DNA of 64,000 nt, from positions 181,738-245,737 of the forward strand of contig CAVVMJ010000010.1 of the NCBI GenBank assembly GCA_963749445.1, written 5' to 3'. A program made the translations under genes and the position numbers. Each line of letters starts with the position of its first letter. The stretch's first letter is position 1. This DNA comes from an uncultured bacterium. Its GTDB lineage: Bacteria; Patescibacteriota; Doudnabacteria; UBA920. The notes under the pieces are model-generated. The model did no database searches. It was not told where the DNA came from and worked only from the letters and a program-made list of their open reading frames with translations. Below, one piece after another: positions 57 to 22,721 of the stretch.

Positions 57-130
57 TAGCTGTTAGCGTTTAGCTGTTAGCGTTTAGCCAACCAGTTTTG
101 CCTGGCTAAATGCTAAATGCTAAATGCTAC
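57..130. repeat. H1 spacer hairpin downstream of rplE
   Basis: TAGCTGTTAGCGTTTAGCTGTTAGCGTTTAGCC aaccagttttgcc TGGCTAAATGCTAAATGCTAAATGCTA. Confidence 0.8.
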
Positions 131-138
131 TTGCAGAA

Positions 139-705
139 TTATTTTTTAAAAGGAAAACCGAGTTCTTTAAGCAATTCCCTGGCGACCTCGTCCTTGCCTG
201 CGTTGGTAATGACGGAAACTTCCAGCCCGAAAATATTTTCCAGCGCGCCGGCGGACATTTCTGGAAACACCAAATGTTCGCGCACGCCCAAATGATAATT
301 GCCGCGGCCGTCAAAATTCGCCGTTACCCCTTGGAAATCGCGCACGCGGGGCAAAGCCACATTAACGAGTTTGTCCAAAAAACTGTACATCCTAAACCCC
401 CGCAAAGTTACCATCACCCCGACAATTTGGTTTTCCCTGACTTTAAATCCGGAAATGGACTTTCTGGCCTGTGTCTTAACCGGCGCCTGTCCGGTAATCT
501 TGGCCACGTCGGCAATAACGGCGTCCACTTTTTTCTTGTCTTCCTTAATTTTGCCCACGCCGCAGTTGACCACCACTTTGGTAATTTTCGGCACTGCCAA
601 AACATTGGCAAAACCAAACTTTTGCTTTAGCGACGGAATCACTTTTTTGATGTATTGTTCTTGGAGTCGTTCCATGTTAGTGGGTAGTAAGTAGTTAGTA
701 GGCAT
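139..705 (-). CDS. rplE: 50S ribosomal protein L5
   Basis: 188 aa ORF; strong resemblance to L5 throughout (KYQKEVIPAL-like N-terminus, VTLRG motif); position after rplX in spc operon order. Confidence 0.9.
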   Translation of the reverse strand: MPTNYLLPTNMERLQEQYIKKVIPSLKQKFGFANVLAVPKITKVVVNCGVGKIKEDKKKVDAVIADVAKITGQAPVKTQARKSISGFKVRENQIVGVMVTLRGFRMYSFLDKLVNVALPRVRDFQGVTANFDGRGNYHLGVREHLVFPEMSAGALENIFGLEVSVITNAGKDEVARELLKELGFPFKK

Positions 706-748
706 GTAGCCTGCGTGGCTACTTACTACTTACTACTGACTATTTGCT
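676..748. repeat. H3 spacer hairpin (TAGTAAG / TTAGTAG tandem arms) between rplE and rplX
   Basis: GTTAGTGGGTAGTAAGTAGTTAGTAGGCATGTAGCCTGCGTGGCTACTTACTACTTACTAC; related copies 2784..2864 and 6731..6806. Confidence 0.8.
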
Positions 749-750
749 AA

Positions 751-1068
751 TTAAACTGCTTTCCCGCTCTGCTTAGCCACTCTCTGCTTGTTGCCGTTTT
801 CCAAAAATTTAAAACCAATGCGCGAAGGATTGCCGGAATTGGGGTCAACCAGCATGACTTTGGAGACCGAAACCGGGGCGGCGAACACAATCTTTTTTCC
901 GCTTTCCCCGGCTTTCCGGCCGCGTTCAAATTTGGTATGCATGTTGACATTATCCACCACCACTTTACCGCGGGCTGGCAGCACGGTCAAAATTTTGCCG
1001 GTCTTGCCTTTGTCTTTGCCGGACAGCACTTTTACGGTATCGCCTTTTTTTATTCGTAGTTTGTTCAT
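751..1068 (-). CDS. rplX: 50S ribosomal protein L24
   Basis: 105 aa; MNKLRIKKGDTVKVLSGKDKGKTGKIL is the canonical L24 KOW N-terminus; between rplN and rplE. Confidence 0.9.
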   Translation of the reverse strand: MNKLRIKKGDTVKVLSGKDKGKTGKILTVLPARGKVVVDNVNMHTKFERGRKAGESGKKIVFAAPVSVSKVMLVDPNSGNPSRIGFKFLENGNKQRVAKQSGKAV

Positions 1069-1080
1069 ATAAATTTCCTT

Positions 1081-1170
1081 CGAACTTACGAACTTATCGA
1101 ACTACGAACTCAGGGTATTGCTGATGGTGGACTTACGGTTCGTAGTTCGTTTTGGTTCGTAAGTTCGTAG
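1081..1170. repeat. H2 spacer hairpin between rplX and rplN
   Basis: CGAACTTACGAACTTATCGAACTACGAAC...CGGTTCGTAGTTCGTTTTGGTTCGTAAGTTCGTAGG. Confidence 0.8.
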
Positions 1171-1180
1171 GACGCTCCTC

Positions 1181-1573
1181 TTAGATGACTTCTGGAGCGA
1201 GCGAAACTATCTTCTTAAATCCGTCCTCGTAATCGCCAATGGCCTTTTCGCGAATCTCTCTCGGGATGGGGCCAAAAATGCGGGTACCCTTTGGCTCGCC
1301 TGATTCCTTGTCCACCAGCACGCCGGCGTTTTCGTCAAACCGGATATAGGAGCCGTCTTTGCGGCGGATTTCCTTTCTTAAACGGACAATAACCGCATAA
1401 ACTTTGTCGCCCTTTTTGATGGAGGTATTGGGGGCAACCTGCTTAACCGAACCGGCAATAATATCACCCACTGTCGCAAAACGCCTGCTGTTCTTGCCGT
1501 TAACCGAAAAGACGTTGACGATTTTCGCGCCCGTGTTATCCGCTATTTTAATCCAGGAACGTACTTGTAGCAT
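1181..1573 (-). CDS. rplN: 50S ribosomal protein L14
   Basis: 130 aa; [17 protein letters not shown]...VKGD matches L14 (MIQ..T.L.VADNSGA) pattern. Confidence 0.9.
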
Positions 1574-1586
1574 TGTGTTGGCTTAT

Positions 1587-1670
1587 TAGTCGTTAGCGTT
1601 TAGCTTTTAGCAGTTAGCGTTTAGCCATTCAGTATTGCCTGGCTAAGTGCTAAATGCTAACGGCTAAGTG
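1587..1670. repeat. H1 spacer hairpin between rplN and rpsQ
   Basis: GTCGTTAGCGTTTAGCTTTTAGCAGTTAGCGTTTAGCC attcagtattgcc TGGCTAAGTGCTAAATGCTAACGGCTAAGTGCTA. Confidence 0.8.
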
Positions 1671-1675
1671 CTATT

Positions 1676-1921
1676 TTAAGCTTTAGAAATCACCTTGAAC
1701 CTCTTATCTTTAGATATCGGCCGGCAGGACTCAATTACAACCTTATCGCCGACGTGGTATTCGTTATTCTCACTGTGCGCCTTAAACTTTCTGGTAATCT
1801 TGTAAGATTTATGGTATTTCGGGTGGCGCTTCTTAGTGTCAACCTTAACCACCACGGTTTTTTGCATCTTATCCGATACCACGGTTCCAATAAGCTGTTG
1901 TTTTTTTGTAGTTGAATCCAT
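1676..1921 (-). CDS. rpsQ: 30S ribosomal protein S17
   Basis: 81 aa; GTVVSDKMQKTVVVKV...HKKY S17 signature; operon position between rpmC and rplN. Confidence 0.85.
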   Translation of the reverse strand: MDSTTKKQQLIGTVVSDKMQKTVVVKVDTKKRHPKYHKSYKITRKFKAHSENNEYHVGDKVVIESCRPISKDKRFKVISKA

Positions 1922-1986
1922 AATCCAATTGAGGATTACGGATTACGGATTACGGGTTAATCCGCAATGCGTAATTCGTAATTATA

Positions 1987-2175
1987 TTAAATCTTCTTAC
2001 TTTGTAAAAATGTCAGTATGCGTGCAATATCCTTCTTAACCGCGCCAATTTGGCGGTTGTTCTTTAACTGGTTCAGCCTGGCTTTAACCGAAAGCTCGTG
2101 CGCCTGCGCCCGCAATTCGCCCAACAGATGTTTGAGCTCAGCTTCGGTTTTGGTTGTAAGTTCTTTGTACTTCAT
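1987..2175 (-). CDS. rpmC: 50S ribosomal protein L29
   Basis: 62 aa helical protein, ELRAQ..EL...RLNQ pattern typical of L29; operon position. Confidence 0.8.
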   Translation of the reverse strand: MKYKELTTKTEAELKHLLGELRAQAHELSVKARLNQLKNNRQIGAVKKDIARILTFLQSKKI

Positions 2176-2187
2176 AGATTCTTCTTT

Positions 2188-2345
2188 ATTCCCCTCTCCA
2201 ATTTATGGAGAGGGTGCCCGACCGCTACTAGAACTTAAAAGGAAGCGGGAGGGCGGGAGAGATTAAGTCCTGGTTTTAACCTCTCTGTCCCGACTAAAGT
2301 CGGGACATCTCCCCATTAAATGGGGAGAATAATATTGTGCTTCGC
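2188..2345. repeat. R2 GC-rich hairpin repeat in rpmC-rplP spacer
   Basis: CCCCTCTCCAATTTATGGAGAGGGTG...GTCCCGACTAAAGTCGGGACATCTCCCCATTAAATGGGGAGAATAATATTGTGCTTCGCTCTATCCC. Confidence 0.8.
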
Positions 2346-2346
2346 T

Positions 2347-2763
2347 CTATCCCTGTTTTTCATTCACCAAAAATTTGCTCTTAACTGGCAGCTTATAGCT
2401 GGCCAACCGCATGGCTTCTTGCGCCTGCTCCCTAGTTACGCCGTCCATCTCAAACAAAATCTTGCCTTTTTTTACCACCGAAACAAAATGGTCCACCGCG
2501 CCTTTGCCGCCGCCCATCGGGGATTCATTGCCATGCACCGTGACCGGTTTGTCCGCGAACACGCGAATCCAAATTTTACCGCCGCGCTGGACATAGCGCG
2601 TCATGGCGCGCCGAGCCGCCTCAATCTGCCGTGCCGTCACCCAGGAACTTTCCAGAGCCTTTAAGGCAAACTGCCCAAACGCGATTTCCTGCCCGGCCGT
2701 GGCCTGCCCTTTGGTGGTTCCGCGATGGTGCTTGCGGTGTTTTAATTTCTTCGGTATAAACAT
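2347..2763 (-). CDS. rplP: 50S ribosomal protein L16
   Basis: 138 aa; [15 protein letters not shown]...[13 protein letters not shown] canonical L16. Confidence 0.9.
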
Positions 2764-2783
2764 ATGGTTGGTTATCTTACTTT

Positions 2784-2864
2784 CTTTACTAACTACTAAT
2801 CGGTACTAATATACTAATCTCTAAGGTCTTCATTAGTATATTCGTAAAAATTAGTAGTTAGTAA
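2784..2864. repeat. H3 spacer hairpin between rplP and rpsC
   Basis: CTTTACTAACTACTAAT...ATTAGTAGTTAGTAAAG. Confidence 0.75.
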
Positions 2865-2891
2865 AGACAGATTACTTAGCTCTTTCTTCGG

Positions 2892-3549
2892 CTAAAACCG
2901 GTTTCTTTCCCCCATCTTTCTTCTCCTCAAAACATCTCCCTTATAAATCCAAACCTTTATCCCGACCGTGCCGTAAGTGGTAAACGCCGTACTCCTGGCA
3001 AAGTCAATGTCGGCGCGCAGAGTATGCAAAGGGATTTTGCCGTTTGACAAATGCTCGGTACGCGCAATGTCCGCGCCGTTAAGCCGCCCGCCGATGGCCA
3101 CTTTGGCCCCTTTGGCTCCGGCCTGCATAATCTGCTCCAAAGACTGCTTCATCAGCCGGCGGAAAGCCACACGTTTTTCCAGCTGTTCGGCAATGCCGTT
3201 GGCAACCACCTGGGCCTGCAAATTTATGTCGCGCACTTCCTCAATGTTAACCTTTAATTCTTTTTTAATGCCGAGCTTGCTCTTAATCTTTTTTTTCAGC
3301 TCTTCAATTCCCGCGCCGCCCTTGCCGATAATCAAGTCCGGGTTTGGTGGTTTTGACAATGACGTTGATTGTCCCGTCGCCCATGCGCTCAATGTCAATG
3401 CGGACCAAGCCGGCTTTTTTTAGGTGCTTTTCCAGATACTCGCGGATCTGACGTCTTCCTGAAGCTGCTGTATATAATGCCCTTTGGAAAACCACCGGGA
3501 TTTCCAGGTATCGGTAATGTTCATGCGGAACGATGTGGGATTGATCTTA
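2892..3549 (-). CDS. rpsC: 30S ribosomal protein S3 (reading frame broken by two apparent frameshifts)
   Basis: N-terminus MGHKINPTSFRMNITDTWKSRWF (start 3549) is in one frame, KH-domain segment (ORF 3304..3495) in a second, C-terminal 168 aa (ORF 2892..3398) in a third; all three pieces match S3 in order. Confidence 0.8.
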
Positions 3550-3719
3550 TGGCCCATAATTTATAGATAGTTATTGGTTATAGGGTGTAGCGGCCGGTAC
3601 GGGGAAAGGTAATAGGGTATTGGTTTTGGCGGCCGGTGTAGTGGTAGGTTTTAAGGTCTCTGTTACCTAAAACCCATTCCTTACAACCACACCGGACGCC
3701 ACACCTTATACCTTACTAC

Positions 3720-4367
3720 TTATTTCTGTACTAGCCGCCACACCTTATACCTTATTACTGCTCTACTCCCCGGACTTTCTATTAAACAGTCTTCTCTTGT
3801 TCTGCATCCGGTTCTCTTTTCTCTGCTCGTCACTCCTGAACAGTTCGCGCTTTTTCGGGGCGTCCGATGTTTCCTTAATGTTGTGGCTTCCTTTTGGTCC
3901 ACGCTCATTTCCGCCGGCCGAAGGTCCCCCGAAGCTTTAGCGGAGGGGGGCTTCTCATCTTTCTTGAACAAAGCGAATCTACTCTTGGACTTAACGCCGG
4001 TCTTGCGCAGTTCCAAAACCAAATTCACGTGCGACAGTTTGCGGCGGATGACAAAAGCGCTGCCGCGGGCGCGGGGGAAATATCGCTTCAAAACTTTACC
4101 CATATCCGCGGTAATGCTTTTGATAAATAAGTGATCAATATCAAGAGAAAAATTATTTTTGGCGTTAGCCATGGCGGAACTTTAAAAGCTTAGCCACCAT
4201 GGGCGCGCCTTTTTTGTTGGATGCTGCAGCTGGACCATCGCCTCATTGGCATTCATGCCCTTAATGACATTCGTCACTAGCCGGATTTTGCTCGGTGCAA
4301 GATGAAGATCGCGGGCGGAGGCCGTAACGAACTTGTGATGATTCGGTTGTGGATATGCTTTGGGCAT
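3720..4367 (-). CDS. rplV: 50S ribosomal protein L22 (one apparent frameshift near 4175; C-terminal end uncertain)
   Basis: ORF 4182..4367 = L22 N-terminus (IRLVTNVIKGMNANEAMVQL), continues in ORF 3720..4172 (VLKRYFPRARGSAFVIRRKLSHVNLVL = L22 core); long tail after that may be artefactual. Confidence 0.65.
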
Positions 4368-4491
4368 TTTATAAATTATTTACTTACTGTAATTTCTAAT
4401 TGCCTAATAATTTCTAATACTTAATATCTATTTATAAACCATACTTTGACATTCGACATTTGATATTGGCATTGTTGAAATAAATTGAAAA

Positions 4492-4836
4492 TTAAAATTG
4501 GTTAATTATTTCTTCGGTCTCTTTCGCCGCCGCCAACTTCGCCTTCTCCGCTTCCGCGGCCGCCATTTCCTGTTCCTTGGCCATCTTGCCGCCGTGGCGG
4601 ATGAATTTGCGGGTCAAAGCGAATTCTCCCAATTTGTGTCCGACCATATTTTCCGTAACGAACACCGGCACATGCGCCCGGCCATTATGCACCAAAAAAG
4701 TAAATCCCACAAATTCCGGCGCAATGGAACAAGCCCGCGACCAGGTCTTAATCTGGTCCTTGCCGGCTTTCCCCGCCAAAACTTTCTTTAACACCCGCGG
4801 GTCTACGTATGGTCCTTTTTTGGATGATCTGGACAT
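4492..4836 (-). CDS. rpsS: 30S ribosomal protein S19 with Ala/Glu/Lys-rich C-terminal extension
   Basis: 114 aa; [19 protein letters not shown]...[23 protein letters not shown] canonical S19; extra ~25 aa tail. Confidence 0.9.
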
Positions 4837-4839
4837 AGG

Positions 4840-5730
4840 TTACTTAATAATTCGAAAACTTGAAAGAATTTTATTAAAAATTGAAGCATCGATATTGGTA
4901 AGATTAAACACATAAACTTTCCCATTCAAATCAGCCTCGTACATTTGGGTTTCAATCATGCCTAATCCAATAAAAGTTGTCCACTTAATAGAATTGATAG
5001 TCTGTGTTTTTAAACTGCCCGGCTGAATATCAGTTTTTGATCCGGCAACGTTGTAAAAACTCAATTCAGATGGCACTCCATCAGACATACAATTCTTATA
5101 CTGGTTCTCTGCCGTGCAATTTTTTGCATTTTCGTCTTGTTTTTGCTTGGTTGACGCTGAAACAAAAGTTAAGCCTTGACTATTAGATTCTACTATCCAA
5201 TCAGCAGGAATATTTACCTTAAAACCATATTGTGCACTAGAATAAGTTTTCCAATTTGCAGTCTGGCTATTGGCAAATTTTATTGGCAAACGAAATTCCT
5301 CAATATTTGACCCGTCCTTCTCTTCCTCGCTCTTAAAAACTAAAACACCGGTCTGTGTTGCCAAATGACTCATCATTTCCCTGTCGCCTACCGTAGCTTC
5401 AAAATAAGCCGGAAATTTCATCCAATCGCCCGTAATTTGCAAAGGCGCTATTTCGCTTACCGCTTTGTTGTTTGCGTCAAAAACTTGGACATTTCCAGCG
5501 ACGCCTTCAAACGCGCTCCACCCTTGGCCATCAAGATACCCTTTTACCGTAATTGGCAACTGAACTTCCTGATTCATTACCGGCTGTTCTACCACAATAC
5601 CTTTCATCTGCTGATTTTGCGCAAGCCCGCCTTGACTCGCCGAAGGCGAGACAGGTTGAACCTGCGCTGTCTGCTTGTTGCAGGCCGCGGCGAGAAGCAG
5701 AATTGGAATTGCGATGAAAAGCTTTTTCAT
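4840..5730 (-). CDS. lipoprotein of unknown function inserted between rplB and rpsS
   Basis: Start taken at MKKLFIAIPILLLAAAC (signal peptide + lipobox Cys); 5' part of the track ORF is translation of the R1 repeat; paralogous signal peptide to 11368..12303. Confidence 0.6.
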   Translation of the reverse strand: MKKLFIAIPILLLAAACNKQTAQVQPVSPSASQGGLAQNQQMKGIVVEQPVMNQEVQLPITVKGYLDGQGWSAFEGVAGNVQVFDANNKAVSEIAPLQITGDWMKFPAYFEATVGDREMMSHLATQTGVLVFKSEEEKDGSNIEEFRLPIKFANSQTANWKTYSSAQYGFKVNIPADWIVESNSQGLTFVSASTKQKQDENAKNCTAENQYKNCMSDGVPSELSFYNVAGSKTDIQPGSLKTQTINSIKWTTFIGLGMIETQMYEADLNGKVYVFNLTNIDASIFNKILSSFRIIK

Positions 5731-5739
5731 AATGTTTAT

Positions 5740-5872
5740 CTCCAACCACCTCCCCCGCCTGCGGCGGGTACTCCTCCTTAAAAAGGAGGAGAGCTCCGCG
5801 GTATTGCGGATAACTGCGGAGCTTCCCTCCTGCCAAGGAGGGATGTCCCGCAAAGCGGGACGGGGTGGTTGT
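5740..5872. repeat. R1 GC-rich modular hairpin repeat, A-spacer-B palindromic pair
   Basis: CTCCAACCACCTCCCCCGCCTGCGGCGGGTACTCCTCCTTAAAAAGGAGGAGAGCTCCGCGG ... GCGGAGCTTCCCTCCTGCCAAGGAGGGATGTCCCGCAAAGCGGGACGGGGTGGTTG; same modules as copies at 12315, 16248, 29219, 30712, 37884, 40021, 50671, 51806. Confidence 0.85.
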
Positions 5873-5886
5873 TAAATGTTAAATGT

Positions 5887-6728
5887 TTACTTCTGCCTGC
5901 GTTGGATAATCATCCGATTGGAATATTTTTTCTTCAATCTTGTCTTTACTCCCAAAGCGTGCTTTCCCCAGGGAGTCTTTGGATATTTCATACCAATCGG
6001 GTTGTGGCCTTCGCCGCCGCCGTGCGGGTGGTCTACCGGGTTCATAACTTTACCTCTTACGTCGGCCGCCAGCCCATATGCCGCATTCTTCCGGCCTTGC
6101 CAATCCTGACGTTCATCCAGTCCGCGTTCGCCAGCTGGCCGATGGACGCCAAAACCTGTCAGGCACGCTGCGGATTTCGCCGCTGGGCATTTTAAGCAAA
6201 GCGTAACCCGCTTCCACAGTCTGTAATATAGCATAATTGCCGGCGGAGCGGGCGATTTTGCCGCCCTGTCCCGGGAATCAATTCAATGTCGTGGATAAAG
6301 TGACCGACCGGAATATTTTTTACCATCAGCCGGTTGCCGGGATGGATGTCCGCGGCTCTCGCCGTACATAATTTTGTCGCCGACCTTAAGCCCCTCTGGC
6401 GTCAAAATAAAACGCTTGCTGCCGTCTTTATAAGAAACCAGCGAAATAAACGCCGTGCGCGTCGGATCGTATTCCATGGTCTAAGAATTTAGCCGGAATA
6501 TTTTTTTTGTCCAGCTCTGGAAAAATCCACAATCCTGGACTTTGCGGATAGCGCCGCCGCCCTGGTGCCGCACGGTAATTTTGCCGCTGTTGTTGCGGCC
6601 GGCCGGCTTTGGCTTTGCTGACAATTAGTCCTTTGGGCGTTTATGGCGTTTATCCAAAACCGAATAGTCGGTAACCTGAATGGATGCGTCTGCCCTGCTG
6701 ATGTTGGTTTGTAGAGTTTTACTGCCAT
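5887..6728 (-). CDS. rplB: 50S ribosomal protein L2 (reading frame broken by at least two apparent frameshifts)
   Basis: Three consecutive ORFs in different frames (6489..6728 [14 protein letters not shown]-terminus; 6283..6477 middle; 5887..6234 C-terminus with HPHGGGEG motif) together match L2 end to end. Confidence 0.8.
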
Positions 6729-6730
6729 AA

Positions 6731-6806
6731 ATTAGTTAGTAGTTGGTAGTGAGTAGGGGGTAGCCAGCAGCTGTTTGACTACTAACTACTTACTACCCAG
6801 TAAATG
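6731..6806. repeat. H3 spacer hairpin between rplB and rplW
   Basis: TAGTTAGTAGTTGGTAGTGAGTAGGGGGTAGCCAGCAGCTGTTTGACTACTAACTACTTACTAC. Confidence 0.75.
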
Positions 6807-7173
6807 CTAAATTGTCTCCGTTGCCCTCTATCTTCTGCCCTTTCTTTAAAGTGACAATGGCTTTTTTAAAACCGGAAGTATGGCCGGAAATCCGGCCGGC
6901 ATTGCGCGTCTTGCCTTTAGTGTTTAAAATATTAACAAAAATCACGTTAACTTTATAAAACCGTTCAACCGATTTCTTGATTTCCACTTTGTTGGCATGC
7001 TTTATAACGTTAAATACGTATTTGCCGCTTTCAGCCAGCTGGCCGGCTTTTTCGGAAATCCTGGGGCCCAGCAAAACCATGGGCATGCCGGAGGCAGCGG
7101 ATGATGCGGCAGCGGCCGATGAAGCCGCGGGCTTGGTTTCTTGCGTTTCTTCCTTTTTGCTGAATAATGCCAT
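6793..7173 (-). CDS. rplW: 50S ribosomal protein L23 with Ala/Ser-rich N-terminal extension
   Basis: 126 aa; C-terminal 95 aa match L23; operon position between rplD and rplB. Confidence 0.85.
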   Translation of the reverse strand: MALFSKKEETQETKPAASSAAAASSAASGMPMVLLGPRISEKAGQLAESGKYVFNVIKHANKVEIKKSVERFYKVNVIFVNILNTKGKTRNAGRISGHTSGFKKAIVTLKKGQKIEGNGDNLAFTG

Positions 7174-7248
7174 ATTATTTACAGATTTATGGGCGCACTG
7201 TAGGGGAAGATATTATCTTCCCTTTAAACGGGCGGATGATATCCGCCC

Positions 7249-7895
7249 CTACTTCTTATTAAGATATGTTTTCTCAATAACCGGTAAAGAATCTTTTAAT
7301 ACAATAATGCTGTCCGCCTTTAATACATCCACTATATTCAAACTGTTGGCCAAAACCGTAGTCAGACTCGGGATATTGCGGGAAGCGCGAAACAGCTTGT
7401 CGTCTTTCTTGGGCATCAAAAACATATTTTTCCTGCCCATATCCTTTACCGATTTTTGAAAGCCGGCCAAAATTTCGGCGAATTCCTTGGTCTTGGGTTT
7501 TTCCATGACAATTTGGTCCACGACGATAAACTGGTTATTCTTGGCTTTATCCGAAACGACATAAACAACGCTTTGGTTTTGGCCTTTTTGTTAATCTTTA
7601 ATTCCCAATTCTGGTTGGCGCGCGGGCCGAAAGTAATGCCGCCGTGGCGCCAAATCGGGCTGCGGGTGCTGCCCACGCGGGCGCGGCCCGTGCCTTTTTG
7701 CTTCCAGGGTTTTTTGCCGCCGCCGCTGACTTCGCCGCGGGTTTTGGTATTGCTGGTGCCTTGGCGGGAATTGGACTGGCTAATGCGCACGGCTTCGGCC
7801 AGCAAATGCTCAGAGGGTTTGACTTCAAAAATCTTGGGATTGAGTTCAATCTCTCCGATTTTTTCAGCTGTCTGGTTGTAAAGCGTTGTCTTCAT
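7249..7895 (-). CDS. rplD: 50S ribosomal protein L4 (one apparent frameshift near 7570)
   Basis: ORF 7446..7895 N-terminal L4 ([16 protein letters not shown]), ORF 7249..7521 C-terminal L4; junction in a T/G homopolymer-rich stretch. Confidence 0.8.
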
Positions 7896-7902
7896 GTATG
7901 AA

Positions 7903-7972
7903 AAGCTTTTAGCGATTAGCGATTAGCCAGCAAAACTGTATGGCTAAATGCTACTTGCTAAACGCTAAATGC
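7903..7972. repeat. H1 spacer hairpin between rplD and rplC
   Basis: GCTTTTAGCGATTAGCGATTAGCCAGCAAAACTGTATGGCTAAATGCTACTTGCTAAACGCTAAATGC. Confidence 0.8.
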
Positions 7973-7976
7973 TTGC

Positions 7977-9483: not shown

Positions 9484-9615
9484 ACAAACAGCACCATTTC
9501 TTAAACTCACGGCCGTGAGTTTAAGAAACCTGCGATCAAATGGAATGATGGCAAAATCCGCCAGGCTCATATCTCCCATATACTGGAGCATAAAAAATAC
9601 TAACTCTCTCGAACT

Positions 9616-9672: not shown

Positions 9673-9823
9673 GACACATGTGTAGTTAGCCCGATTTTCT
9701 GGGCTGCCCAAATATCTCACAGCCGATAAATCGGCTAACTACGGGCTTAAATAGCCAAAAGGACTACCCTTTCAAGGATAGTCCTTTGTCTGTGTTAATC
9801 CGTTATCAATCCGTGTTTATCTT

Positions 9824-11015
<1,192 letters not shown>

Positions 11016-11367
11016 ACTTGTTTAAACCTTTCTTTTTCGGAGGATCGGATAAATCGGATAAATCGGAATTCTGATTTTTCCGACTTTCTGATATTCTGAT
11101 TTTTCCGAAATACTGCCCGAGATTCCCTAAGCGCTGATGCGTATCGATCCGCATAAGCGCCAAAGGGATCTCTTTTTTACGCCGAGGAGGCGTGATCCAG
11201 AGCAATAAATTAATTATTTTACCCGCCTAAACTTTGCCTTATTTATTAAAGATGGTTATTTGGATTATCCAATTGTAATTAAATTGGCCAATCCAAATTA
11301 CCATCGCAAAGTTTTGGCGGGTGAACTACAACTTATTTTAAAGATATTTCAAGGTTCTGTCAAACCG

Positions 11368-12303
11368 CTATAAGGCCCTTTCCAAAGTTAAGTTACAATG
11401 CTGGCTGACCCAAGACTGGTCAAATTCATCCAATTCCCGCCTCTGTCCGTTGAGAATGTAATACTGGCGGCTTTGGGGAGTGCCGGTTAGGGGAGGCATA
11501 TCGTTTTCTATCCACTGCTCGGGACAGACCTGGAGCTTGCCGGTTGCGGAAGGCGGGGAAGATGGCGCGGGAGCGGGAGCGGAAGTATATGAAAAGCCGT
11601 TCCTCAAAACATCAAGCTTATTCCACACATCGGCATGGTCAAATTCCGCCCTTGGTGGAGAAAAATTCCCCGCGTTGGCCCAGCGGGCGGTTTCGTCAAT
11701 TTCGTAACAAATTGTCCCGTAAAAAGCGCGGTTAAAATGGGTTTCGCTAAAATTGCCGGCTCCGGCGTCCGTGGCTACGGCCGTAATAAACACCACGCCA
11801 TTGCCCAAGGCAGCGCCTTTAACCTGGCCGCCGTTTAACTCCTGCGCGGTAAAGCTGCCGCAATCGCCAATGTTGGTTTTATCTTTTAAAACAGACACGG
11901 CAACGCCCGCTGACTCCAAATTCGTGTTTTGGTACGGCTGGCCGTTTAACACAAAACACACATCCGGCATTTCGCCGTACGGCACGCAGGCGGAAAAATT
12001 CACTCCCTTGGTATTATTCGCTTTAACTTTTGCCCCGGTAAAAAGATTAAAATAACTTAAATACAAAATCTTAAAATGTTCCGCGGCGTTATTGTAAACA
12101 TTCAAGGTCAGCGGCGGCGGCGGAACGGTTGTTTTTTGGGGAGTTGATGTTGCCGCTACCGGCGTAGACGTTGCCGGCTGGTTTTGGGCCGGTTGAATTG
12201 ATATATTTTGGCTCGCAGCCGGTACTGTCAAAACCGGCTGCGGCTTTTTAGAACAGGCGGCGGCCAAAAGTAAGATTGATGCGATGATAAAAATTTTCTT
12301 CAT
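11368..12303 (-). CDS. lipoprotein of unknown function (paralogous signal peptide to 4840..5730)
   Basis: Start at MKKIFIIASILLLAAACSKK; Thr/Pro-rich linker; R1 half-repeat immediately upstream of start codon. Confidence 0.55.
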   Translation of the reverse strand: MKKIFIIASILLLAAACSKKPQPVLTVPAASQNISIQPAQNQPATSTPVAATSTPQKTTVPPPPLTLNVYNNAAEHFKILYLSYFNLFTGAKVKANNTKGVNFSACVPYGEMPDVCFVLNGQPYQNTNLESAGVAVSVLKDKTNIGDCGSFTAQELNGGQVKGAALGNGVVFITAVATDAGAGNFSETHFNRAFYGTICYEIDETARWANAGNFSPPRAEFDHADVWNKLDVLRNGFSYTSAPAPAPSSPPSATGKLQVCPEQWIENDMPPLTGTPQSRQYYILNGQRRELDEFDQSWVSQHCNLTLERAL

Positions 12304-12314
12304 ATGGATTATGC

Positions 12315-12374
12315 GCGGAGCATCCTCCCCTGCCAAGGGGAGGTGTCCCGCGAAGCGGGACGGAGGGGTTGGAG
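12315..12374. repeat. R1 terminal inverted repeat (B orientation) abutting stop codon of DUF559 gene
   Basis: GCGGAGCATCCTCCCCTGCCAAGGGGAGGTGTCCCGCGAAGCGGGACGGAGGGGTTGGAG ends at 12374; gene stop begins at 12375. Confidence 0.85.
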
Positions 12375-12725
12375 TCAACCAAGATTTTTCTTAATCTCCT
12401 GTAACACTCCTTCTAAATTTTTTATGACATCCTTATTTTCAAATCTTATAACTTTTATATTCAGCCTTTGTAAATATTCGGTTCTATTTTCATCTTTGGC
12501 GTAACCTTGTTCGGAATCATGAGGACTGCCGTCAAGTTCAACGGCAAGCTTCTTATCGGCGCAATAAAAATCTACAATATACCTGCCAATACCGTGTTGC
12601 CGGCGAAATTTATGGCCCAATTGCTTATTTTTTAAATGATTCCAGAGCCTGGCTTCGGCTGGCGTTAAATGCTTTCTTAAGTCTTTTCTGTAATTTTTCA
12701 GACCGATGATGTTGTTTAACCTCAT
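12375..12725 (-). CDS. DUF559 domain protein (Vsr-like / PD-(D/E)xK endonuclease fold)
   Basis: 116 aa; LTPAEARLWNHLKNKQLGHKFRRQHGIGRYIVDFYC...ELDGSPHD motif set; about 65% identical to 29279..29635; framed exactly by R1 inverted repeats. Confidence 0.7.
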   Translation of the reverse strand: MRLNNIIGLKNYRKDLRKHLTPAEARLWNHLKNKQLGHKFRRQHGIGRYIVDFYCADKKLAVELDGSPHDSEQGYAKDENRTEYLQRLNIKVIRFENKDVIKNLEGVLQEIKKNLG

Positions 12726-12789
12726 ACTCCAACCCCCCTCCCGCCGCTTTGCGGCAGACTCCCCCTTAACAGGGGGAGATGCTCCGCGG
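12726..12789. repeat. R1 terminal inverted repeat (A orientation) abutting start codon of DUF559 gene
   Basis: CTCCAACCCCCCTCCCGCCGCTTTGCGGCAGACTCCCCCTTAACAGGGGGAGATGCTCCGCGG begins one base after the ATG (12725); its GGAG sits in Shine-Dalgarno position. Confidence 0.85.
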
Positions 12790-12842
12790 TTCTGCGTAAA
12801 ACCAGCGTACCTATCGGCGACAGATCAGCGGAAAACAGATTA

Positions 12843-13229
12843 TTATAAGTCATCTATCTCCACCTTGGGCCCCTCAAAATCAAAACTCGGGTCAATGACT
12901 TCGGCGCGCAAATCCTGGCGCGGGATCCGGTGGGCCGATTCGGTGATTGTCGGGCCGGTAATTTTAGGTTTGGGAATTTCCACAACCGCCGGCTTGTCGG
13001 TTTCCTGCAGCTGTGCTTTCAAAATTTCGCGATTGATTTTTTCCACATCCTCGGTTTGCTGTTTAACCTGCCTTTGGAGTTTGCCAAGCAACAGGCGCTG
13101 ATAATCTTCCACCGACATAATTACCAACTTAGCCTCCCCGCTCTCGTCCATCACAAAAAACTTGCCTCCATCGGCCTTAGCTAAATTGATGATATCGTTT
13201 AGTGATGTCATAAATCTCCCCTGTTCCAT
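12843..13229 (-). CDS. hypothetical protein with Phd/YefM-antitoxin-like N-terminal motif
   Basis: GEAKLVIMSVEDYQRLL resembles YefM GEACVLMSLEEYNSLEE; no obvious toxin partner; weak. Confidence 0.4.
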   Translation of the reverse strand: MEQGRFMTSLNDIINLAKADGGKFFVMDESGEAKLVIMSVEDYQRLLLGKLQRQVKQQTEDVEKINREILKAQLQETDKPAVVEIPKPKITGPTITESAHRIPRQDLRAEVIDPSFDFEGPKVEIDDL

Positions 13230-13306
13230 CCCAGCCGAGCATCATCGCAACACATGGGCGAGAGCCGGGATCCAGTTACCGGCTCAAATACTGTATACCG
13301 ATTCTG

Positions 13307-13372
13307 GGCCCCGGATATTTTTTGCGGCCTGCGATAACCATCAGCGCAAAAAATTCCGGGGTGGAAACTATT
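13307..13372. repeat. R3 hairpin repeat copy
   Basis: GGGCCCCGGATATTTTTTGCGGCCTGCGATAACCATCAGCGCAAAAAATTCCGGGGTGG. Confidence 0.75.
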
Positions 13373-14007
13373 TGTTATATTTAAGTATTCCAATTATACC
13401 CCTATTTTCCAGCCTTTACAACCTTCTCTCTCTTTGCTATTCTGACCTATCGCCACAAATGGATACGGACACAGAAGTCCAAAGCCCGACGAGAGAGGAG
13501 GGAAAACGATTTATCCTACGGGAACCAAGCTTCGGTTGAAAGTTAGTAGAGCCCACCCTCGCGGCAGAGCCTTACAATATCCAATCTCCGGGGTTGAGGC
13601 AATTAAAGCAACGGAGATAGTTACCGTTCAAACTGCATTTAAATCTCCGAAGGCCGGAGGATGGTGTTACACGTTCGAAGAACGGGGCCATGCACTGTCC
13701 TATTTTGCACGCGACTTTCAACCGGCTTTATTCTAGTCCGATCGCCGCACCGGACTGTTTGCAACCCTGTGCCGTTTCGCCGTTGCGCGGGACGACACTG
13801 GGCTCGTTTTTTTTTATTCCCCAAAAAGTATATACCTAAGTATATACTTCGGTATATACTAAACCGTTTTTTGCTTGTTGACATAACGCGTACGTACGCG
13901 CAAACGCAACAAGCATTTTTTTCAATAACGATAAGGGGCGGCCTTCGGCCGCCCTAAAATCCGTGATCCGTGTTAATCCGTAATCTATCCGTGTCAATCT
14001 TTTCCCC

Positions 14008-16131
14008 TCACATACCTTTTCTAACATTAATCCCCTGCCGGCTTTCAATAATCTTTTCCGCCACGTTCCTTGGCACTTCGGCGTAATGGTCAAATTCCAT
14101 TGTATAGCTGGCCTGGCCCTGCGTCATTGAACGGAGCGATGTGGCATAGCCGAACATTTCGCTGAGCGGCACCATCGCGTCAATAACTTTGAGGTGTAAT
14201 TTATCCGTCATCTCATTAATCTGCGCGCGCTTACTGTTCAAATCTCCGATGACATCGCCCATATTGGTTTCCGGCGTGGTCACTTCCACTTTCATAATCG
14301 GCTCCAAAATAACCGGATCGGCTTTTTTTACGGCATCCTGCAAACCCTTGGAAGCGGCAATTTTAAACGCCATTTCACTGGAGTCTACTTCGTGGTACGA
14401 ACCGTCAAACGCCGCGGCGCGGAAATCCACCAACGGATAGCCGGCAATTACGCCGTTGGCCGCCGACTCCTGAATGCCTTTGTCTATCGGCTTAATGTAT
14501 TCGCGCGGAATCACGCCGCCGACAATCTCGTCCACAAACTCGTAACCCTTGCCGCGCTCCAGCGGCTCCACGCGCAAATAGACGTGGCCGTATTGGCCGC
14601 GGCCTCCGGTCTGGCGGATGTATTTACTCTCGGCCTCGGCGATTTTTTTGATGGTTTCCTTGTACGCGACTTCCGGCTTGCCCACGTTGGCTTCCACTTT
14701 GAACTCGCGTTTCATTCTGTCCACAATGATTTCAAGATGTAACTCACCCATCCCGCCGATAATCGTCTGCTGGGTCTCTTCATTCGTGGATAATTTAAAA
14801 GTCGGGTCTTCCTCGGCCAATTTACCCAATGCGATGCCCATTTTTTCCTGGTCAGCCTTGGTCTTAGGCTCAATGGACATATGAATCACCGGCTCGGCAA
14901 ACTTGATGCGTTCCAGCTGGATGGGCTTATCCACGTCGCACAAAGTATCACCGGTAAAGGTTTCTTTTGGCCCGACAAGGGCGCAAATGTCGCCGGCAAA
15001 AACTTCCTTGACTTCTTCGCGGTCATCGGCCTTCATTCTTACAATGCGTCCCACGCGCTCTTTGTTTTCGGTTCTTGCGTTAAGCACATACGAGCCGGCT
15101 TCCAGAAACCCTGAGTACACGCGGAAAAAACACAAGCGCCCGACAAACGGGTCAGTGGCAATTTTAAAAGCCAAAGCCGCAAACGGCTCGCTGTCCAAAG
15201 GCTTTCGTTCTATGTCCGCGCCGGTCTTCAAGTCGTGCCCTTTGACCGGGCCGCGGTCCGTCGGGGAAGGTAAAAAATTGGTCACCGCGTCCAAAATCGT
15301 TTGCACAATAATTCCCCTGCCGTCGCCGCCCAAAACCGGAAAAAACTTACCGCTCTGCACGCTCTTTCTTATGGCCGTCAAAAATTCCCGCTCCGTCAGT
15401 TCGGCTCCGGTCAAATATTTTTCCATTATAACGTCGTCGCTTTCCACGACTTTCTCCAAAAGTTTGTGGCGCCACTCTTTGCATTTTTCCAGCATATCGG
15501 CCGGCACTTCGCCCACGGTAAACTCCTTGTCCGTGTAATCTTTGTAGGTGTAGGCCTTCATGTTTATCAAATCCACCACGCCGCAAATATCTTTTTCAAA
15601 ACCGATCGGCAATTGGATGGGCAGGGCGTCGGGCGACAATCTTTTGTGGATGGAGGTCAAAGATTTATAAAAGTCGCCGCCGGTTTGGTTGATTTTGTTG
15701 ATAAAGCACATCCGCGGCACGTGGTATTTGTCCGCCTGGCGCCAGACTGTTTCGGATTGCGGCTCCACGCCCATCTTCCCGTCAAACACGACAACTGCTC
15801 CATCAAGCACTCTTAAAGACCGCTCCACTTCCACGGTAAAATCCACGTGGCCCGGGGTATCAATAATATTGATCTTGTGTTTGACATCGCCCGCGAGCTT
15901 GACGAATTTCGGCGCCCAATAGCAAGTTACCGCGGCCGCGGTAATGGTAATGCCGCGCTCGCGCTCCTGCTCCATCCAGTCAGTCACGGTTTCGCCTTCG
16001 TGCACCGTGCCGATTTTATGGATCATTCCGGTATTATACAAAACGCCTTCGGTCACGGTCGTCTTGCCGGCGTCTATGTGCGCGATAATGCCGATGTTTC
16101 TTGTAAGTTCTATTGGATATTCACGAGCCAT
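14008..16131 (-). CDS. fusA: elongation factor G
   Basis: 707 aa; [21 protein letters not shown]-equivalent and all five EF-G domains present. Confidence 0.95.
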
Positions 16132-16247
16132 AAAAAATTAGTTTTTAGATATTAGTTGTTAGGTTTTAGGTTTTAGGTTTTACATTGTGCAGCGGAAAAG
16201 TATATACTTCGGTATATACAAAATTTTCAAAGTTCTTTTGCAAATCC

Positions 16248-16393
16248 GCGGAGCTTCCCCTCCTTCCCTCCTTGCTGAGGAGGGGTGGATCGCGTTAGCG
16301 AGACGGGGTGGTATTTATCCGCAAAGACTCCAACCACCTCCCCCCTCGACTTCGCTCGGGGTACTCCTCCTTAAAAAGGAGGAGAGGCTCCGC
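16248..16393. repeat. R1 repeat, B-spacer-A pair (gene-less derivative of the DUF559 element)
   Basis: GCGGAGCTTCCCCTCC...GGAGGGGTGGATCGCG...GACGGGGTGGTATTTATCCGCAAAGACTCCAACCACCTCCCCCC...TACTCCTCCTTAAAAAGGAGGAGAGGCTCCGC; between fusA and rpsG. Confidence 0.85.
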
Positions 16394-16438
16394 AGTTGTC
16401 CGTCTCAGTCCGTTCCCAGTCCGTAACAGTCCGCGTAC

Positions 16439-17053
16439 CTATCTCCGCCCAAACCTCGCAAAATGCGCAAACGCCTTATTGGCCTCTGCCATCCTGTGCA
16501 CGTCTTCTCTCTTCTTTATGGCTGCACCGGTGCGGTTGTAGGCGTCCATAATTTCTCCGGCCAATTTTTCCTTCATGGGCGCGCCTTTTTTGGCCCTGGC
16601 CGCGGCCAACAGCCAGCGGATGCCGAGCGTGGTCTTGCGCGGCTCCTGAACTTCCATCGGCACCTGATAGTTAGCCCCGCCGATTCTGCGGGATTTTAAC
16701 TCCATCATCGGGGCGACGTTTTTTAACGCGATATCAAATACCGCTCGGCCGTCCAACTTTTGCGGTGCCGCTGATTTTTGCGGAACTGCAGTATTCCCCT
16801 CCTTTTTAAGGAGGGGCGTCTGCGCAGCAGACGGGGTGGTTGGAGATTTGACTGAAACAGCAACCGGAGCCGCCACGGGCATCGCGGCCATTTTTTTCTC
16901 CACAATCTCCAAAGCGTCGTAAAAAATCCTGCGCGCCACGTTTTTCTTGCCGCGCTGCATCAAATAATTTATAAATTTGGCATACTTGACCGAGCCGAAT
17001 TTCGGGTCCGGCAAAGGCACGTGTTTGTCGTAGCTCCTTGATTTTCTGGGCAT
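16439..17053 (-). CDS. rpsG: 30S ribosomal protein S7 with about 46 aa in-frame insertion partly encoded by an R1 half-repeat
   Basis: 204 aa versus about 156 typical; N-terminal (PRKSRSYDKHVPLPDPKFGS) and C-terminal (KKREDVHRMAEANKAFAHF) S7 blocks flank AMPVAAPVAVSVKSPTTPSAAQTPLLKKEGNTAVPQKSAAPQKLDG. Confidence 0.9.
   Translation of the reverse strand: MPRKSRSYDKHVPLPDPKFGSVKYAKFINYLMQRGKKNVARRIFYDALEIVEKKMAAMPVAAPVAVSVKSPTTPSAAQTPLLKKEGNTAVPQKSAAPQKLDGRAVFDIALKNVAPMMELKSRRIGGANYQVPMEVQEPRKTTLGIRWLLAAARAKKGAPMKEKLAGEIMDAYNRTGAAIKKREDVHRMAEANKAFAHFARFGRR
16801..16864. repeat. R1 half-repeat (B) inside rpsG coding sequence, in frame
   Basis: GGAACTGCAGTATTCCCCTCCTTTTTAAGGAGGGGCGTCTGCGCAGCAGACGGGGTGGTTGGAG. 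Confidence 0.85.
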
Positions 17054-17055
17054 GG

Positions 17056-17130
17056 TTTTAGCTTTTAGCGATTAGCTTTTAGCGATTAGCCAGCCATGTC
17101 TGGCTAAATGCTAACTGCTAAATGCTAACT
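17056..17130. repeat. H1 spacer hairpin (TTAGCG/GCTAAA tandem-repeat arms)
   Basis: TTTTAGCTTTTAGCGATTAGCTTTTAGCGATTAGCCAGCCATGTCTGGCTAAATGCTAACTGCTAAATGCTAA; copies also at 57..130, 1587..1670, 7903..7972, 17553..17632. Confidence 0.8.
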
Positions 17131-17136
17131 TCTTGT

Positions 17137-17550
17137 TTACTTCTTCTTGGCTCCATACTTAGACCGAGAGCGTTTCCGACCGTCAACGCCTAATGTGTCC
17201 AATTTCCCTCTGATGATATGATAGCGCACGCCGGGCAAATCTTTTACCCTGCCGCCGCGGATCATCACCACACTGTGTTCCTGTAAGTTGTGGCCGATGC
17301 CCGGAATATAGGCAATCACTTCCATGCCGTTGGTGAGTTTGACTTTGGCGACTTTGCGCAAAGCCGAGTTCGGCTTTTTGGGCGTGGTGGTATAAACCTT
17401 AAGGCACACGCCACGCATAAACGGCGCGCCTTTGGCAATCCACAAGGTGCGGTTTTTGATTAAGTTGACGCGGCGCAACAAAGCCGGAGCCTTGCTTTTG
17501 GCCTGTAAACTGTGCCTGCCGTGCCTGACTAACTGGTTGATTGTGGGCAT
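17137..17550 (-). CDS. rpsL: 30S ribosomal protein S12
   Basis: 137 aa; [12 protein letters not shown]...[14 protein letters not shown]...[11 protein letters not shown] canonical S12. Confidence 0.9.
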
Positions 17551-17552
17551 TT

Positions 17553-17632
17553 CGTTAGCTTTTAGCGTTTAGCGATTAGCGATTAGCCAGCCATGTTTGG
17601 CTAAAAGCTAACTGCTAAATGCTAAATGCTTT
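17553..17632. repeat. H1 spacer hairpin upstream of rpsL
   Basis: TTCGTTAGCTTTTAGCGTTTAGCGATTAGCGATTAGCCAGCCATGTTTGGCTAAAAGCTAACTGCTAAATGCTAAATGC. Confidence 0.8.
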
Positions 17633-22700: not shown

Positions 22701-22721
22701 TTTAAATCTTGCTCAATTCGC

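Follow-up and report, generated by a model that had tools for sequence, protein, structure and literature searches.

Interchangeable palindromes with tandem-repeat arms fill ribosomal-protein operon spacers in a clade of Doudnabacteria and in Pirellulales

Introduction

A 64,000-nt stretch of a Candidatus Doudnabacteria contig (Patescibacteria/candidate phyla radiation; GenBank CAVVMJ010000010.1, positions 181,738 to 245,737; hereafter the window) encodes the S10/spc/str ribosomal-protein region on its minus strand, and its L16 protein is 88-95% identical to L16 of Doudnabacteria metagenome-assembled genomes (MAGs). A preliminary description of this DNA had stated that every intergenic spacer of the cluster holds an A+T-rich hairpin built from short tandem repeats, listing ten copies in three families, and had proposed RNase III-type processing sites, translational-coupling insulators or insertions resembling miniature inverted-repeat transposable elements (MITEs) as their possible nature. 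The locus raises the question of where these hairpins come from and how the genes behind them are still translated. We give about an even chance to the reading that they are copy-and-paste palindromic elements, co-transcribed with their operons, which fold out of the mRNA and thereby keep the stop codon, or the Shine-Dalgarno (SD) motif, adjacent to the next start codon.

Results

Tandem-repeat hairpins in the ribosomal-protein spacers of the window

Sliding-window minimum free energy (MFE) on its own was dropped as a detector, as G+C-rich coding sequence reaches equally low energies. We used an inverted-repeat score which counts G.T and A.C alike, is thus blind to strand, and was compared with that of shuffled spacers. 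All ten loci listed in the preliminary description proved to be real hairpins: they fold where they had been placed, with an RNA MFE of -24 to -45 kcal/mol and arms of tandem short repeats, and most score z = 5.5-12.7 above shuffled spacers. The statement about every spacer went too far, as a tandem-repeat hairpin is found in 11 of about 17 junctions and leaders of the S10/spc/str region, among them a heptamer hairpin between rpmC and rpsQ that had been missed. The rplP-rpmC spacer (2176-2346) holds a G+C-rich GGAGG/CCTCC element instead, the rplD-rplW spacer (7174-7248) two short G+C hairpins, and neither the rpsS-rplV (4368-4491, z -0.4) nor the rpsJ-rplC spacer (8643-8879) contains a significant hairpin. 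The hairpins are not assembly artefacts, since dozens of independent short-read MAGs and JGI contigs show the same architecture.

Three families are too few, because the third grouping lumped a GTAG-unit family (676-748 and 6731-6806) with an unrelated TACTAAC/TACGAAT family (2784-2864). The former also occupies other junctions in six related genomes (L002, L010, L011, L017, L070 and L071), and the latter has 13 members at 8 junctions in 8 genomes. The repeat motifs described earlier are present, but they had been read on the antisense of the mRNA, the genes being on the minus strand; on the mRNA strand, the rplE-rpsN hairpin of family H1 reads (AGCATTT)n-AGCCAGG-loop-TTGGCTAA-(ACGCTAA)n. The loop of the rpsQ-rplN copy, GCCAGGCAATACTGAATGGC, recurs in L004 and in metagenome copies, and the copy in the rpsL leader lies downstream of a promoter-like site (17842-17814). 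An H2 copy had been placed upstream of metG, and Pfam confirms this gene; the copy is oriented like the one between rplN and rplX, a spacer in which GAGGAG stands immediately 3' of the rplN stop codon. The rplV-rpsC spacer holds a direct repeat of GCCACACCTTATACCTTA, and the rplW-rplB hairpin extends into the rplW stop codon. Eight further hairpins of the same architecture, seven intergenic and one within metG, lie in the remainder of the window (Table 1). The metG hairpin codes for about 26 additional residues (RSENRKIGKSDTAPTSDSSDLRFPDF), and the family found between the DUF3048 gene and purH is also present in the rplW-rplB spacers of L001, L006 and L008.

A scan for intrinsic terminators called none of the tandem-repeat hairpins on the minus strand; the stem bases are A/T. 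Rfam 15 at the gathering score returned only four tRNAs in the window, and an E-value search of positions 1-18000 only chance-level matches to eukaryotic snoRNA and miRNA families.

Hairpin anatomy

The base of the hairpin mostly lies 0-3 nt (median 2) past the stop codon and its 3' end a median of 9 nt before the start codon, so that the two leftovers outside the hairpin total about 12 nt, as much as a spacer without a hairpin measures. On the 3' side, this remaining sequence is A/U-rich and poor in G (10% G). The hairpins themselves are 60-100 nt long; the median number of pairs is 35 and the G+C content about 34%. Strong periodicity marks 34% of the arms compared to 1% of shuffles; among the 128 strongly periodic 5' arms, 85 have a period of 7 nt and the others one of 8-10 nt, and the period is equal in both arms in 70 of 76 hairpins. 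A typical unit consists of a core of 4-6 nt (ACGAA, TTAGC/TAGCT, GTAG, CAGAT, AAAGT) and 1-3 variable, often mismatched bases. At these variable positions, 25% of the pairs are Watson-Crick in Doudnabacteria, where most are mismatched, and 56% are paired in the Pirellulales copies described below, which renders classical covariation analysis uninformative. SD-like 4-mers are scarce in the lineage, preceding 3% of genes in hairpin-rich and 13% in tightly packed genomes, in agreement with a report that some Parcubacteria have lost the anti-SD motif (PMC9297842).

Tight and filled spacers in related genomes

We compared 20 junctions between 21 genes (S10 to SecY) in 80 related genomes (L001-L080). 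Over 1316 junctions, spacer lengths form a bimodal distribution in which a trough (40-60 nt) separates the peaks at 0-10 nt and 70-110 nt. The junctions fall into tight (0-30 nt) and filled ones (60-130 nt), and 394 of the 709 spacers with a length of 45 nt or more hold a hairpin with z>4. Per genome, the proportion of filled junctions ranges from 0 to 1; L035-L037 and L073-L079, for instance, are relatives free of hairpins. In the clade nearest to the window (L001-L030), 81% of junctions measure at least 55 nt, whereas the Kerfeldbacteria and several distant Doudnabacteria lineages are tightly packed, so that the expectation of tight packing in relatives holds for the distant lineages and fails for the close clade. 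Outside the ribosomal cluster, about 11% of junctions in the relatives carry a hairpin, and 24 of 30 such hairpins lie between same-direction genes.

Two deviating cases were seen in this comparison. In the relative L009, five junctions have spacers of 230-270 nt, and SD-like motifs precede 42% of the ribosomal-protein genes (0-10% in its neighbours). In all 80 genomes a long spacer (107-543 nt) separates rpsJ from rplC, even where other junctions measure 0-10 nt; this spacer may contain a promoter or an unrecognised leader.

Sequence families and their copying

An all-against-all comparison placed 302 of 432 hairpins in 61 sequence families. As many as 532 of the 575 similarity links join different junctions, 377 of them in different genomes; in 494 cases the best match points the same way relative to the genes, in 76 the opposite way. 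Loop sequences are retained irrespective of genome and junction; GCCAGGCAATACTGNNTGGC, for example, is common to the window, L004 and several metagenome contigs, and such shared loops can hardly be convergent. As members of one family turn up in several genomes and at several junctions with their loops and orientation conserved, the families have spread by copying. Individual genomes illustrate this process: the same 103-nt sequence occurs twice in L022, each time filling a different spacer from stop to start, L002 carries five copies of one family, and in both genomes the copies begin directly at the stop codon without a shared flank. Family H1 occupies six spacers in succession on one metagenome contig. 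Between L070 and L071, a clean insertion or deletion of 65 nt interrupts an otherwise alignable spacer; its boundary is ambiguous owing to the repeat units, with at most a possible duplication of 'caag'.

An origin by replication slippage in situ, which would leave the hairpins neither mobile nor functional, has to be weighed against these data. Members of one family differ in the number of tandem units per arm, the arms seem to have grown by unit duplication because the units of one arm often share the same mismatch, and heptamer-derived satellites are known in bacteria (PMC6749651). Slippage does not account for loops and arms that recur from junction to junction and across genomes and phyla, for the repeated 103-nt spacer of L022, for the strong orientation bias or for the conservation of retained copies above synonymous sites. 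The family structure has largely refuted it already, and we consider neutral slippage highly improbable.

Conservation and replacement of individual copies

A test of arm identity on same-family, same-site pairs from saturated genome pairs was set aside, as the choice of pairs is biased, and all spacers of close genome pairs were compared instead. Between L048 and L056, 11 of 12 filled spacers are retained and the twelfth holds a different family. The retained spacers are 96.5% identical compared to 88.5% at four-fold sites (p 1e-13), and within them the arms are 98.2% and the loops 85% identical (p 0.004), the loops being indistinguishable from synonymous sites. In the more divergent pair L008 and L019 (four-fold identity 67%), 2 spacers are conserved (82-96% identical), 12 have been replaced, and another 5 occur in just one of the two genomes. 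The preliminary description had linked tightly packed relatives with neutral repeat expansion; distant relatives are indeed tight, but the conservation of retained spacers above synonymous sites contradicts that conclusion. The pattern of copies either conserved or replaced whole fits neither plain junk nor a classical conserved RNA.

A sister family in Pirellulales with a split ribosome binding site

A 24-base pattern of family H1 matched 86 metagenome contigs. About half of them are low in G+C and Doudnabacteria-like; the others have 54-72% G+C and encode L1 proteins 81-88% identical to proteins named Pirellulales, Lacipirellulaceae or Planctomycetes. The commonest neighbours of the metagenome copies are the genes for L11, L1, L23, S8, L13, L17 and NusG. 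The (TTAGCNN)n family thus lies between ribosomal-protein genes of Pirellulales as well, in the form of A+T-rich (TTAGCTN)n hairpins. A 1.34-Mb Pirellulales contig carries hairpins in its nusG-rplK and rplK-rplA spacers and other heptamer arrays after rplJ and before rpoC, and the hairpins of seven contigs (L150, L167, L081, L087, L108, L127 and L163; Table 1) sit among nusG, rplK, rplA, rplJ, rplW and rplB. About a dozen clear copies share one layout, in which the stop codon is followed by GGAG, the hairpin, 4-13 nt and ATG. The SD motif is thereby 80-95 nt away from the start codon in the linear sequence, and only folding would restore a working SD-start distance. In these copies the arms form nearly perfect duplexes of about 36 bp with -50 to -59 kcal/mol. 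The loop-proximal stem GCCAG...CTGGC, previously taken as a sign of a recognised structure, is a real hallmark of H1 common even to different phyla, but descent within a copied family explains it as well as recognition does.

Contig L167 also contains direct TTTGCAA/TTTGCAT heptamer arrays in its rpoB-rpoC spacer just upstream of rpoC (16219-16629) and a hairpin of AATGCAA units after rplJ (11289-11540). A perfect (TTAGCYN)n palindrome was found in a Chitinophagaceae-like Bacteroidota contig. Viral contigs yielded one H1 match and no H2-type match; phage carriage, which we considered as a means of spread, is unsupported, the pattern being nearly missing from them.

The split layout bears on the proposal that the hairpins are RNase III-type processing sites at which the polycistronic transcript is cut into single-gene mRNAs. 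Stems of 25-40 pairs, including the Pirellulales duplexes, are long enough for a double-strand-specific RNase. Yet cleavage within the stem would part the SD motif from the ATG in the Pirellulales copies, the stems of Doudnabacteria are broken by mismatches every 7 nt, and no rnc gene is present within the window, which makes RNase III processing improbable in our view.

Strand asymmetries of the stems

On the mRNA strand, A.C mismatches exceed G.U pairs in 214 hairpins compared to 90 with the opposite excess (44 against 14 families and 67 against 33 singletons). Because of this, the antisense strand folds better by about 2 kcal/mol; it does so in 9 of the 10 listed copies of the window and in 242 cases against 143 overall. 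Positions without a pair are rich in A, as is typical of RNA, but only on the sense strand (A.A 344 against T.T 144), and the 5' arm is purine-rich. A strand mutation bias is not sufficient as the cause of the A.C excess, since four-fold sites on the sense strand are rich in C and T and show no excess of A. We read the asymmetries as pointing to a constraint specific to the mRNA strand, in which maximal stability of the mRNA stem would not be the selected trait.

The same observations could be taken to indicate a role of the DNA or of the other strand, be it a cruciform or single-strand hairpin serving as a site for a topoisomerase, nucleoid protein or recombinase, or a functional antisense transcript. 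The better folding of the non-coding strand, which has G.T where the mRNA has A.C, and the association with highly transcribed operons would suit this explanation. On the other hand, it is the mRNA strand that has the A-rich mismatches and the purine-rich 5' arm, the precise fit from stop to start codon and the split-SD layout relate to translation, and no convincing antisense promoter was found, promoter-like sites occurring at chance level (28 found, 22 expected). A DNA-level or antisense role is therefore decidedly improbable.

Gene content and other repeats of the window

Genes of the region and hairpin coordinates are listed in Table 1. Coding sequences split over at least two reading frames were found for rpsC (2892-3557), rplV (3720-4367), rplB (5887-6728), rplD (7249-7895), tuf (9824-11010) and leuS (36533-39639). 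These split frames of S3, L22, L2, L4, tuf and leuS suggest indel errors of a long-read assembly, or pseudogenes; the hairpins are unaffected by the indel-rich assembly. A lipoprotein-like gene (4840-5730) with a signal peptide and weak Gmad2/PsbP-like Pfam matches is inserted between rplB and rpsS, and L001, L003 and L005 likewise have a gap of 690-1100 nt at this junction.

A second, G+C-rich class of repeats, composite palindromes of GGAGG...CCTCC and CCGCGG motifs, is scattered through the window and flanks three DUF559 endonuclease-like genes (12375-12725, 18354-18737 and 29279-29635). Members of this class also lie in frame within genes. The S7 protein of 204 aa has an inserted low-complexity segment, and TatD (324 aa) and TGT (463 aa) extend about 70-100 residues beyond the length of their Pfam profiles. 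A further small palindrome family, TTTCTTAAACTCACGG|CCGTGAGTTTAAGAAA, is found at 9497-9528 and 39641-39692, and one of the CCGGGATATTTTTTGCG type at 9600-9680, 13290-13365 and 62025-62180, the last including a near-perfect palindrome of 139 nt (62033-62171, -74 kcal/mol).

Table 1. Genes, hairpins and other palindromes of the window, and hairpins of Pirellulales contigs (54-62% G+C); z refers to the inverted-repeat score
Feature	Position	Hairpin	Strand	Remarks
rpsL	17550-17137		-	first in transcription order
rpsG	17053-16439		-	after rpsL
fusA	16131-14008		-	after rpsG
tuf	~11010-9824		-	after fusA
rpsJ	9203-8880		-	after tuf
rplC	8642-7977		-	after rpsJ
rplD, rplW, rplB, inserted lipoprotein-like gene, rpsS, rplV, rpsC			-	in this order after rplC
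rplP	2763-2347		-	after rpsC
rpmC, rpsQ, rplN, rplX			-	in this order after rplP
rplE	675-139		-	after rplX
rpsN, start	56-1		-	S14 N-terminus MATQAQIAKSK in bases 1-56
rplE-rpsN spacer, H1	57-138	64-129	-	-32 (mRNA strand)/-38 (other strand) kcal/mol; arm 31 nt
rplX-rplE spacer, GTAG units	676-750	678-742	-	z 8.2
rplN-rplX spacer, H2, ACGAAC/GTTCGT units	1069-1180	1076-1172	-	-37/-45 kcal/mol; z 8-10
rpsQ-rplN spacer, H1	1574-1675	1594-1673	-	z 10.3
rpmC-rpsQ spacer, (GGATTAC)n/(GTAATYC)n	1922-1988		-	arm 32 nt; z 7.9
rpsC-rplP spacer, TACTAAC/TACGAAT units	2764-2891	2780-2870	-	39-nt arms, 87% complementary; z 12.7
rplV-rpsC spacer, long composite hairpin	3558-3763	3565-3763	-	-53/-54 kcal/mol; 84-nt arms; z 11.2
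rplW-rplB spacer, GTAG units, weaker	6729-6798		-	-24/-27 kcal/mol; z 2.7
rplC-rplD spacer, H1	7896-7976	7904-7966	-	z 5.5; family alignment
rpsL-rpsG spacer, H1	17054-17136	17058-17128	-	z 10.4
rpsL leader, H1, just 5' of start codon	17551-17640	17557-17630	-	fold
H2, directly upstream of metG	42305-42434		-	z 8.3; metG by Pfam
GCGAA units, directly downstream of rpsO	55079-55150		-	z 11.2; S15 by Pfam
ATCAGAA/CCGATTTAT units, upstream of tuf	11030-11115		-	-21 kcal/mol
AAAATCGG units, in frame within metG	41484-41560		-	-33.8 kcal/mol
TGACATGATT/AATCATGTCA units, long DUF3048-purH intergenic region	22605-22710		-	fold
CTGCGAAAA/TTTCGCA units, adjoining purH	23150-23255		-	-35.8 kcal/mol
ACGAAA/TTTCGT units, divergent intergenic region	62760-62855		-	fold
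G+C-rich palindrome	2187-2334
G+C-rich palindrome	5743-5871
G+C-rich palindrome	12310-12370
G+C-rich palindrome	12725-12790
G+C-rich palindrome	16250-16400
G+C-rich palindrome	18230-18300
G+C-rich palindrome	18740-18790
G+C-rich palindrome	29646-29690
G+C-rich palindrome	30709-30834
G+C-rich element in rpsG	16780-16860			in frame
G+C-rich element in tatD	40019-40160			in frame
G+C-rich element in tgt	50756-50901			in frame
G+C-rich element in leuS	37910-37993			in frame
Pirellulales hairpin, contig L150		1313-1405
Pirellulales hairpin, contig L150		2597-2688
Pirellulales hairpin, contig L167		9388-9462
Pirellulales hairpin, contig L167		9889-10000
Pirellulales hairpin, contig L081
Pirellulales hairpin, contig L087
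Pirellulales hairpin, contig L108
Pirellulales hairpin, contig L127
Pirellulales hairpin, contig L163

Discussion

According to the fold-out reading, small non-coding palindromes with inverted arms of short tandem units would have spread among the spacers of highly expressed translation operons in one Doudnabacteria clade, and a sister family would have done likewise in Pirellulales. Being transcribed within the polycistronic mRNA, each element would fold out as a long imperfect hairpin and bring the upstream stop codon, or the SD motif in Pirellulales, back to a distance of no more than about 12 nt from the downstream start codon, whereby termination-reinitiation or SD-dependent initiation on the next ribosomal-protein gene would still work. 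Mutations weakening the stem would be selected against, as the essential downstream gene depends on folding, whereas a precise loss or swap of the element would be tolerated; such dependence would thus give rise to the pattern of conserved or replaced copies. A barrier to 3'-5' exonucleases is plausible as a secondary benefit, polynucleotide phosphorylase (PNPase) being encoded in the window (52226-54487). This account would explain the stop/start fit, the split ribosome binding site of the Pirellulales, the conservation of arms but not of loops and the tolerated loss or swap of whole elements. As for the suggested translational-coupling insulators, coupling is compatible with the stop/start geometry and the split SD...hairpin...ATG arrangement, but the data do not suggest an insulator.

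Several observations weigh against this reading. In Doudnabacteria, an SD motif is found beside the hairpins in about 5% of cases in every zone, no more than in loops, so that the argument from the split ribosome binding site is limited to Pirellulales. The A.C excess is opposite to what simple selection for maximal mRNA pairing predicts, and the fold-out account alone leaves this excess, the preference for translation operons and the 7-nt unit unexplained. Regarding mobility, the comparison of filled and empty sites shows no clear target-site duplication, position-frequency tables at both ends reveal no conserved tetranucleotide that could be an end tag but only A/T at the base pair (GTAG is present only as the repeated core of one family), and a Pfam scan of about 48 open reading frames (ORFs) found no transposase, RAYT or insertion sequence (IS) in the window, nor was an IS seen in the 20-kb loci of the relatives examined. 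Homologous recombination between strains could be the source of part of the turnover, and the constraint test draws mainly on one close genome pair (L048/L056). Finally, that the hairpins are so strongly enriched in ribosomal-protein operons, and this in two phyla, hints at a positive function over mere tolerance.

Such a function could be the stabilisation of mRNA, as discussed for REP (repetitive extragenic palindromic) elements or for the 3' inverted repeats of chloroplasts: hairpins at cistron ends would block 3'-5' exonucleases, stabilise each segment of the transcript in slow-growing cells and be kept because they help. The position of the hairpins immediately after stop codons, the PNPase gene in the window together with a hairpin directly after rpsO, the enrichment in translation operons, the conservation of stems above synonymous sites while loops drift, and the apparent usability of any family at any junction all speak for it, and for REPs, which have been described downstream of coding regions, a role in stabilising mRNA has been proposed (PMC3733652). 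What it leaves unexplained is the constant 4-13 nt between the 3' end of the hairpin and the next ATG as well as the SD motif 5' of the hairpin in Pirellulales; in addition, A.C is preferred over G.U on the mRNA strand, and many related species live without hairpins. Exonuclease protection of each cistron is most likely the benefit, if there is one, and is a serious rival or complement to folding out, although we find it rather doubtful that adaptive stabilisation is the explanation by itself.

Searches of the full-text literature yielded no description of inverted heptamer arrays in ribosomal-protein operons, the nearest systems being REPs, heptamer direct repeats and satellites. The elements would be a variant of intergenic palindromic repeats that probably stands outside the REP and MITE families, since the short G+C-rich form and the end tag of REPs are missing. 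REPs are extragenic, sometimes intragenic, repeats of several families per genome which lie between same-direction genes, are co-transcribed and have been proposed to stabilise mRNA (PMC3733652; PMC3116915). Our elements resemble REPs, BIMEs and REPINs in being extragenic palindromes in families (61 here), which for the most part lie close behind coding regions and between genes of the same direction. They differ in that REPs are G+C-rich sequences of 20-40 nt with an unpaired GTAG or CGTC tag and are mobilised by RAYTs, whereas the elements described here are A+T-rich, 60-100 nt long with tandem heptamer arms, have no common tag and no RAYT in the window, and cluster in ribosomal-protein operons. 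MITEs such as Correia/NEMIS, RUP, BOX and ERIC are small non-autonomous repeats with inverted ends which lie in or near operons, are co-transcribed and form hairpins. The likeness to small hairpin-forming repeats in operons is apparent, and among the three earlier proposals MITE-like insertions are, in spirit, the best supported, by recurring loop-sharing families, presence and absence, whole-element replacement and one clean indel. Formal membership of the MITE or REP families is doubtful for want of a clear target-site duplication, a conserved end tag and a transposase: the filled and empty sites compared showed no clear duplication, no parent IS was detected in the window and the 20-kb loci, and here the hairpin is the whole element, with internally repetitive arms that fill the entire spacer from stop to start.

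Cyanobacterial STRR (short tandemly repeated repetitive) sequences are tandem repeats of heptamers. Intergenic direct repeats of the heptamer TAACTGA occur in Beggiatoaceae, Cyanobacteria and Bacteroidetes (PMC4679880), and satellites derived from heptamers have been reported (PMC6749651). These share with our elements the 7-nt tandem intergenic units near the start codons of genes without a canonical SD motif and the patchy distribution across phyla (PMC4679880; PMC6749651). However, they are direct arrays predicted to be unstructured, while two inverted arrays form one hairpin here (-24 to -59 kcal/mol), with other and many unit sequences and a saturation of ribosomal-protein operons. In genes 38 and 25 of phage T4, a stem-loop between SD motif and start codon restores a working distance. 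This SD-hairpin-start layout is found in the Pirellulales copies only; the T4 hairpins are single, short and not repeated mobile families, and the Doudnabacteria copies involve no SD motif. Rickettsia palindromic elements, in turn, are about 100-150 nt long, lack heptamer arms and are mostly intragenic. In-frame palindromes within genes are found here as well, namely the metG hairpin and the separate G+C-rich elements in rpsG, tatD, tgt and leuS, but intragenic cases of the hairpins are exceptional. TIGR arrays were set aside as a counterpart because of their different architecture.

More broadly, and only tentatively, the hairpins may represent a so far undescribed class shared across phyla (Patescibacteria and Planctomycetota, with similar palindromes in Bacteroidota) of copy-and-paste modules in the spacers of translation operons, whose folding-out at the RNA level would be obligatory. 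Such modules would provide hard-wired translational coupling together with segment-wise protection of the mRNA, be held by purifying selection and swapped whole on the time-scale of synonymous divergence, and be mobilised without a transposase of their own.

The finding matters since ribosomal-protein operons, which are among the most conserved and most tightly packed gene arrays of bacteria, are filled with interchangeable hairpins of 60-100 nt in two unrelated phyla. In practical work, these elements lengthen spacers and give rise to spurious ORFs. Assembly and gene calling of Patescibacteria MAGs may suffer from them, and their rapid turnover makes them potential strain markers. They also offer a system in which to study the spread of palindromes without a transposase and the recurrence of 7-nt intergenic units. 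Intercistronic geometry may accordingly be maintained by RNA folding instead of by distance in the primary sequence, and the hairpins would be a natural system for ribosome reinitiation across a stem, without an SD motif in Doudnabacteria and with a split SD motif in Pirellulales.

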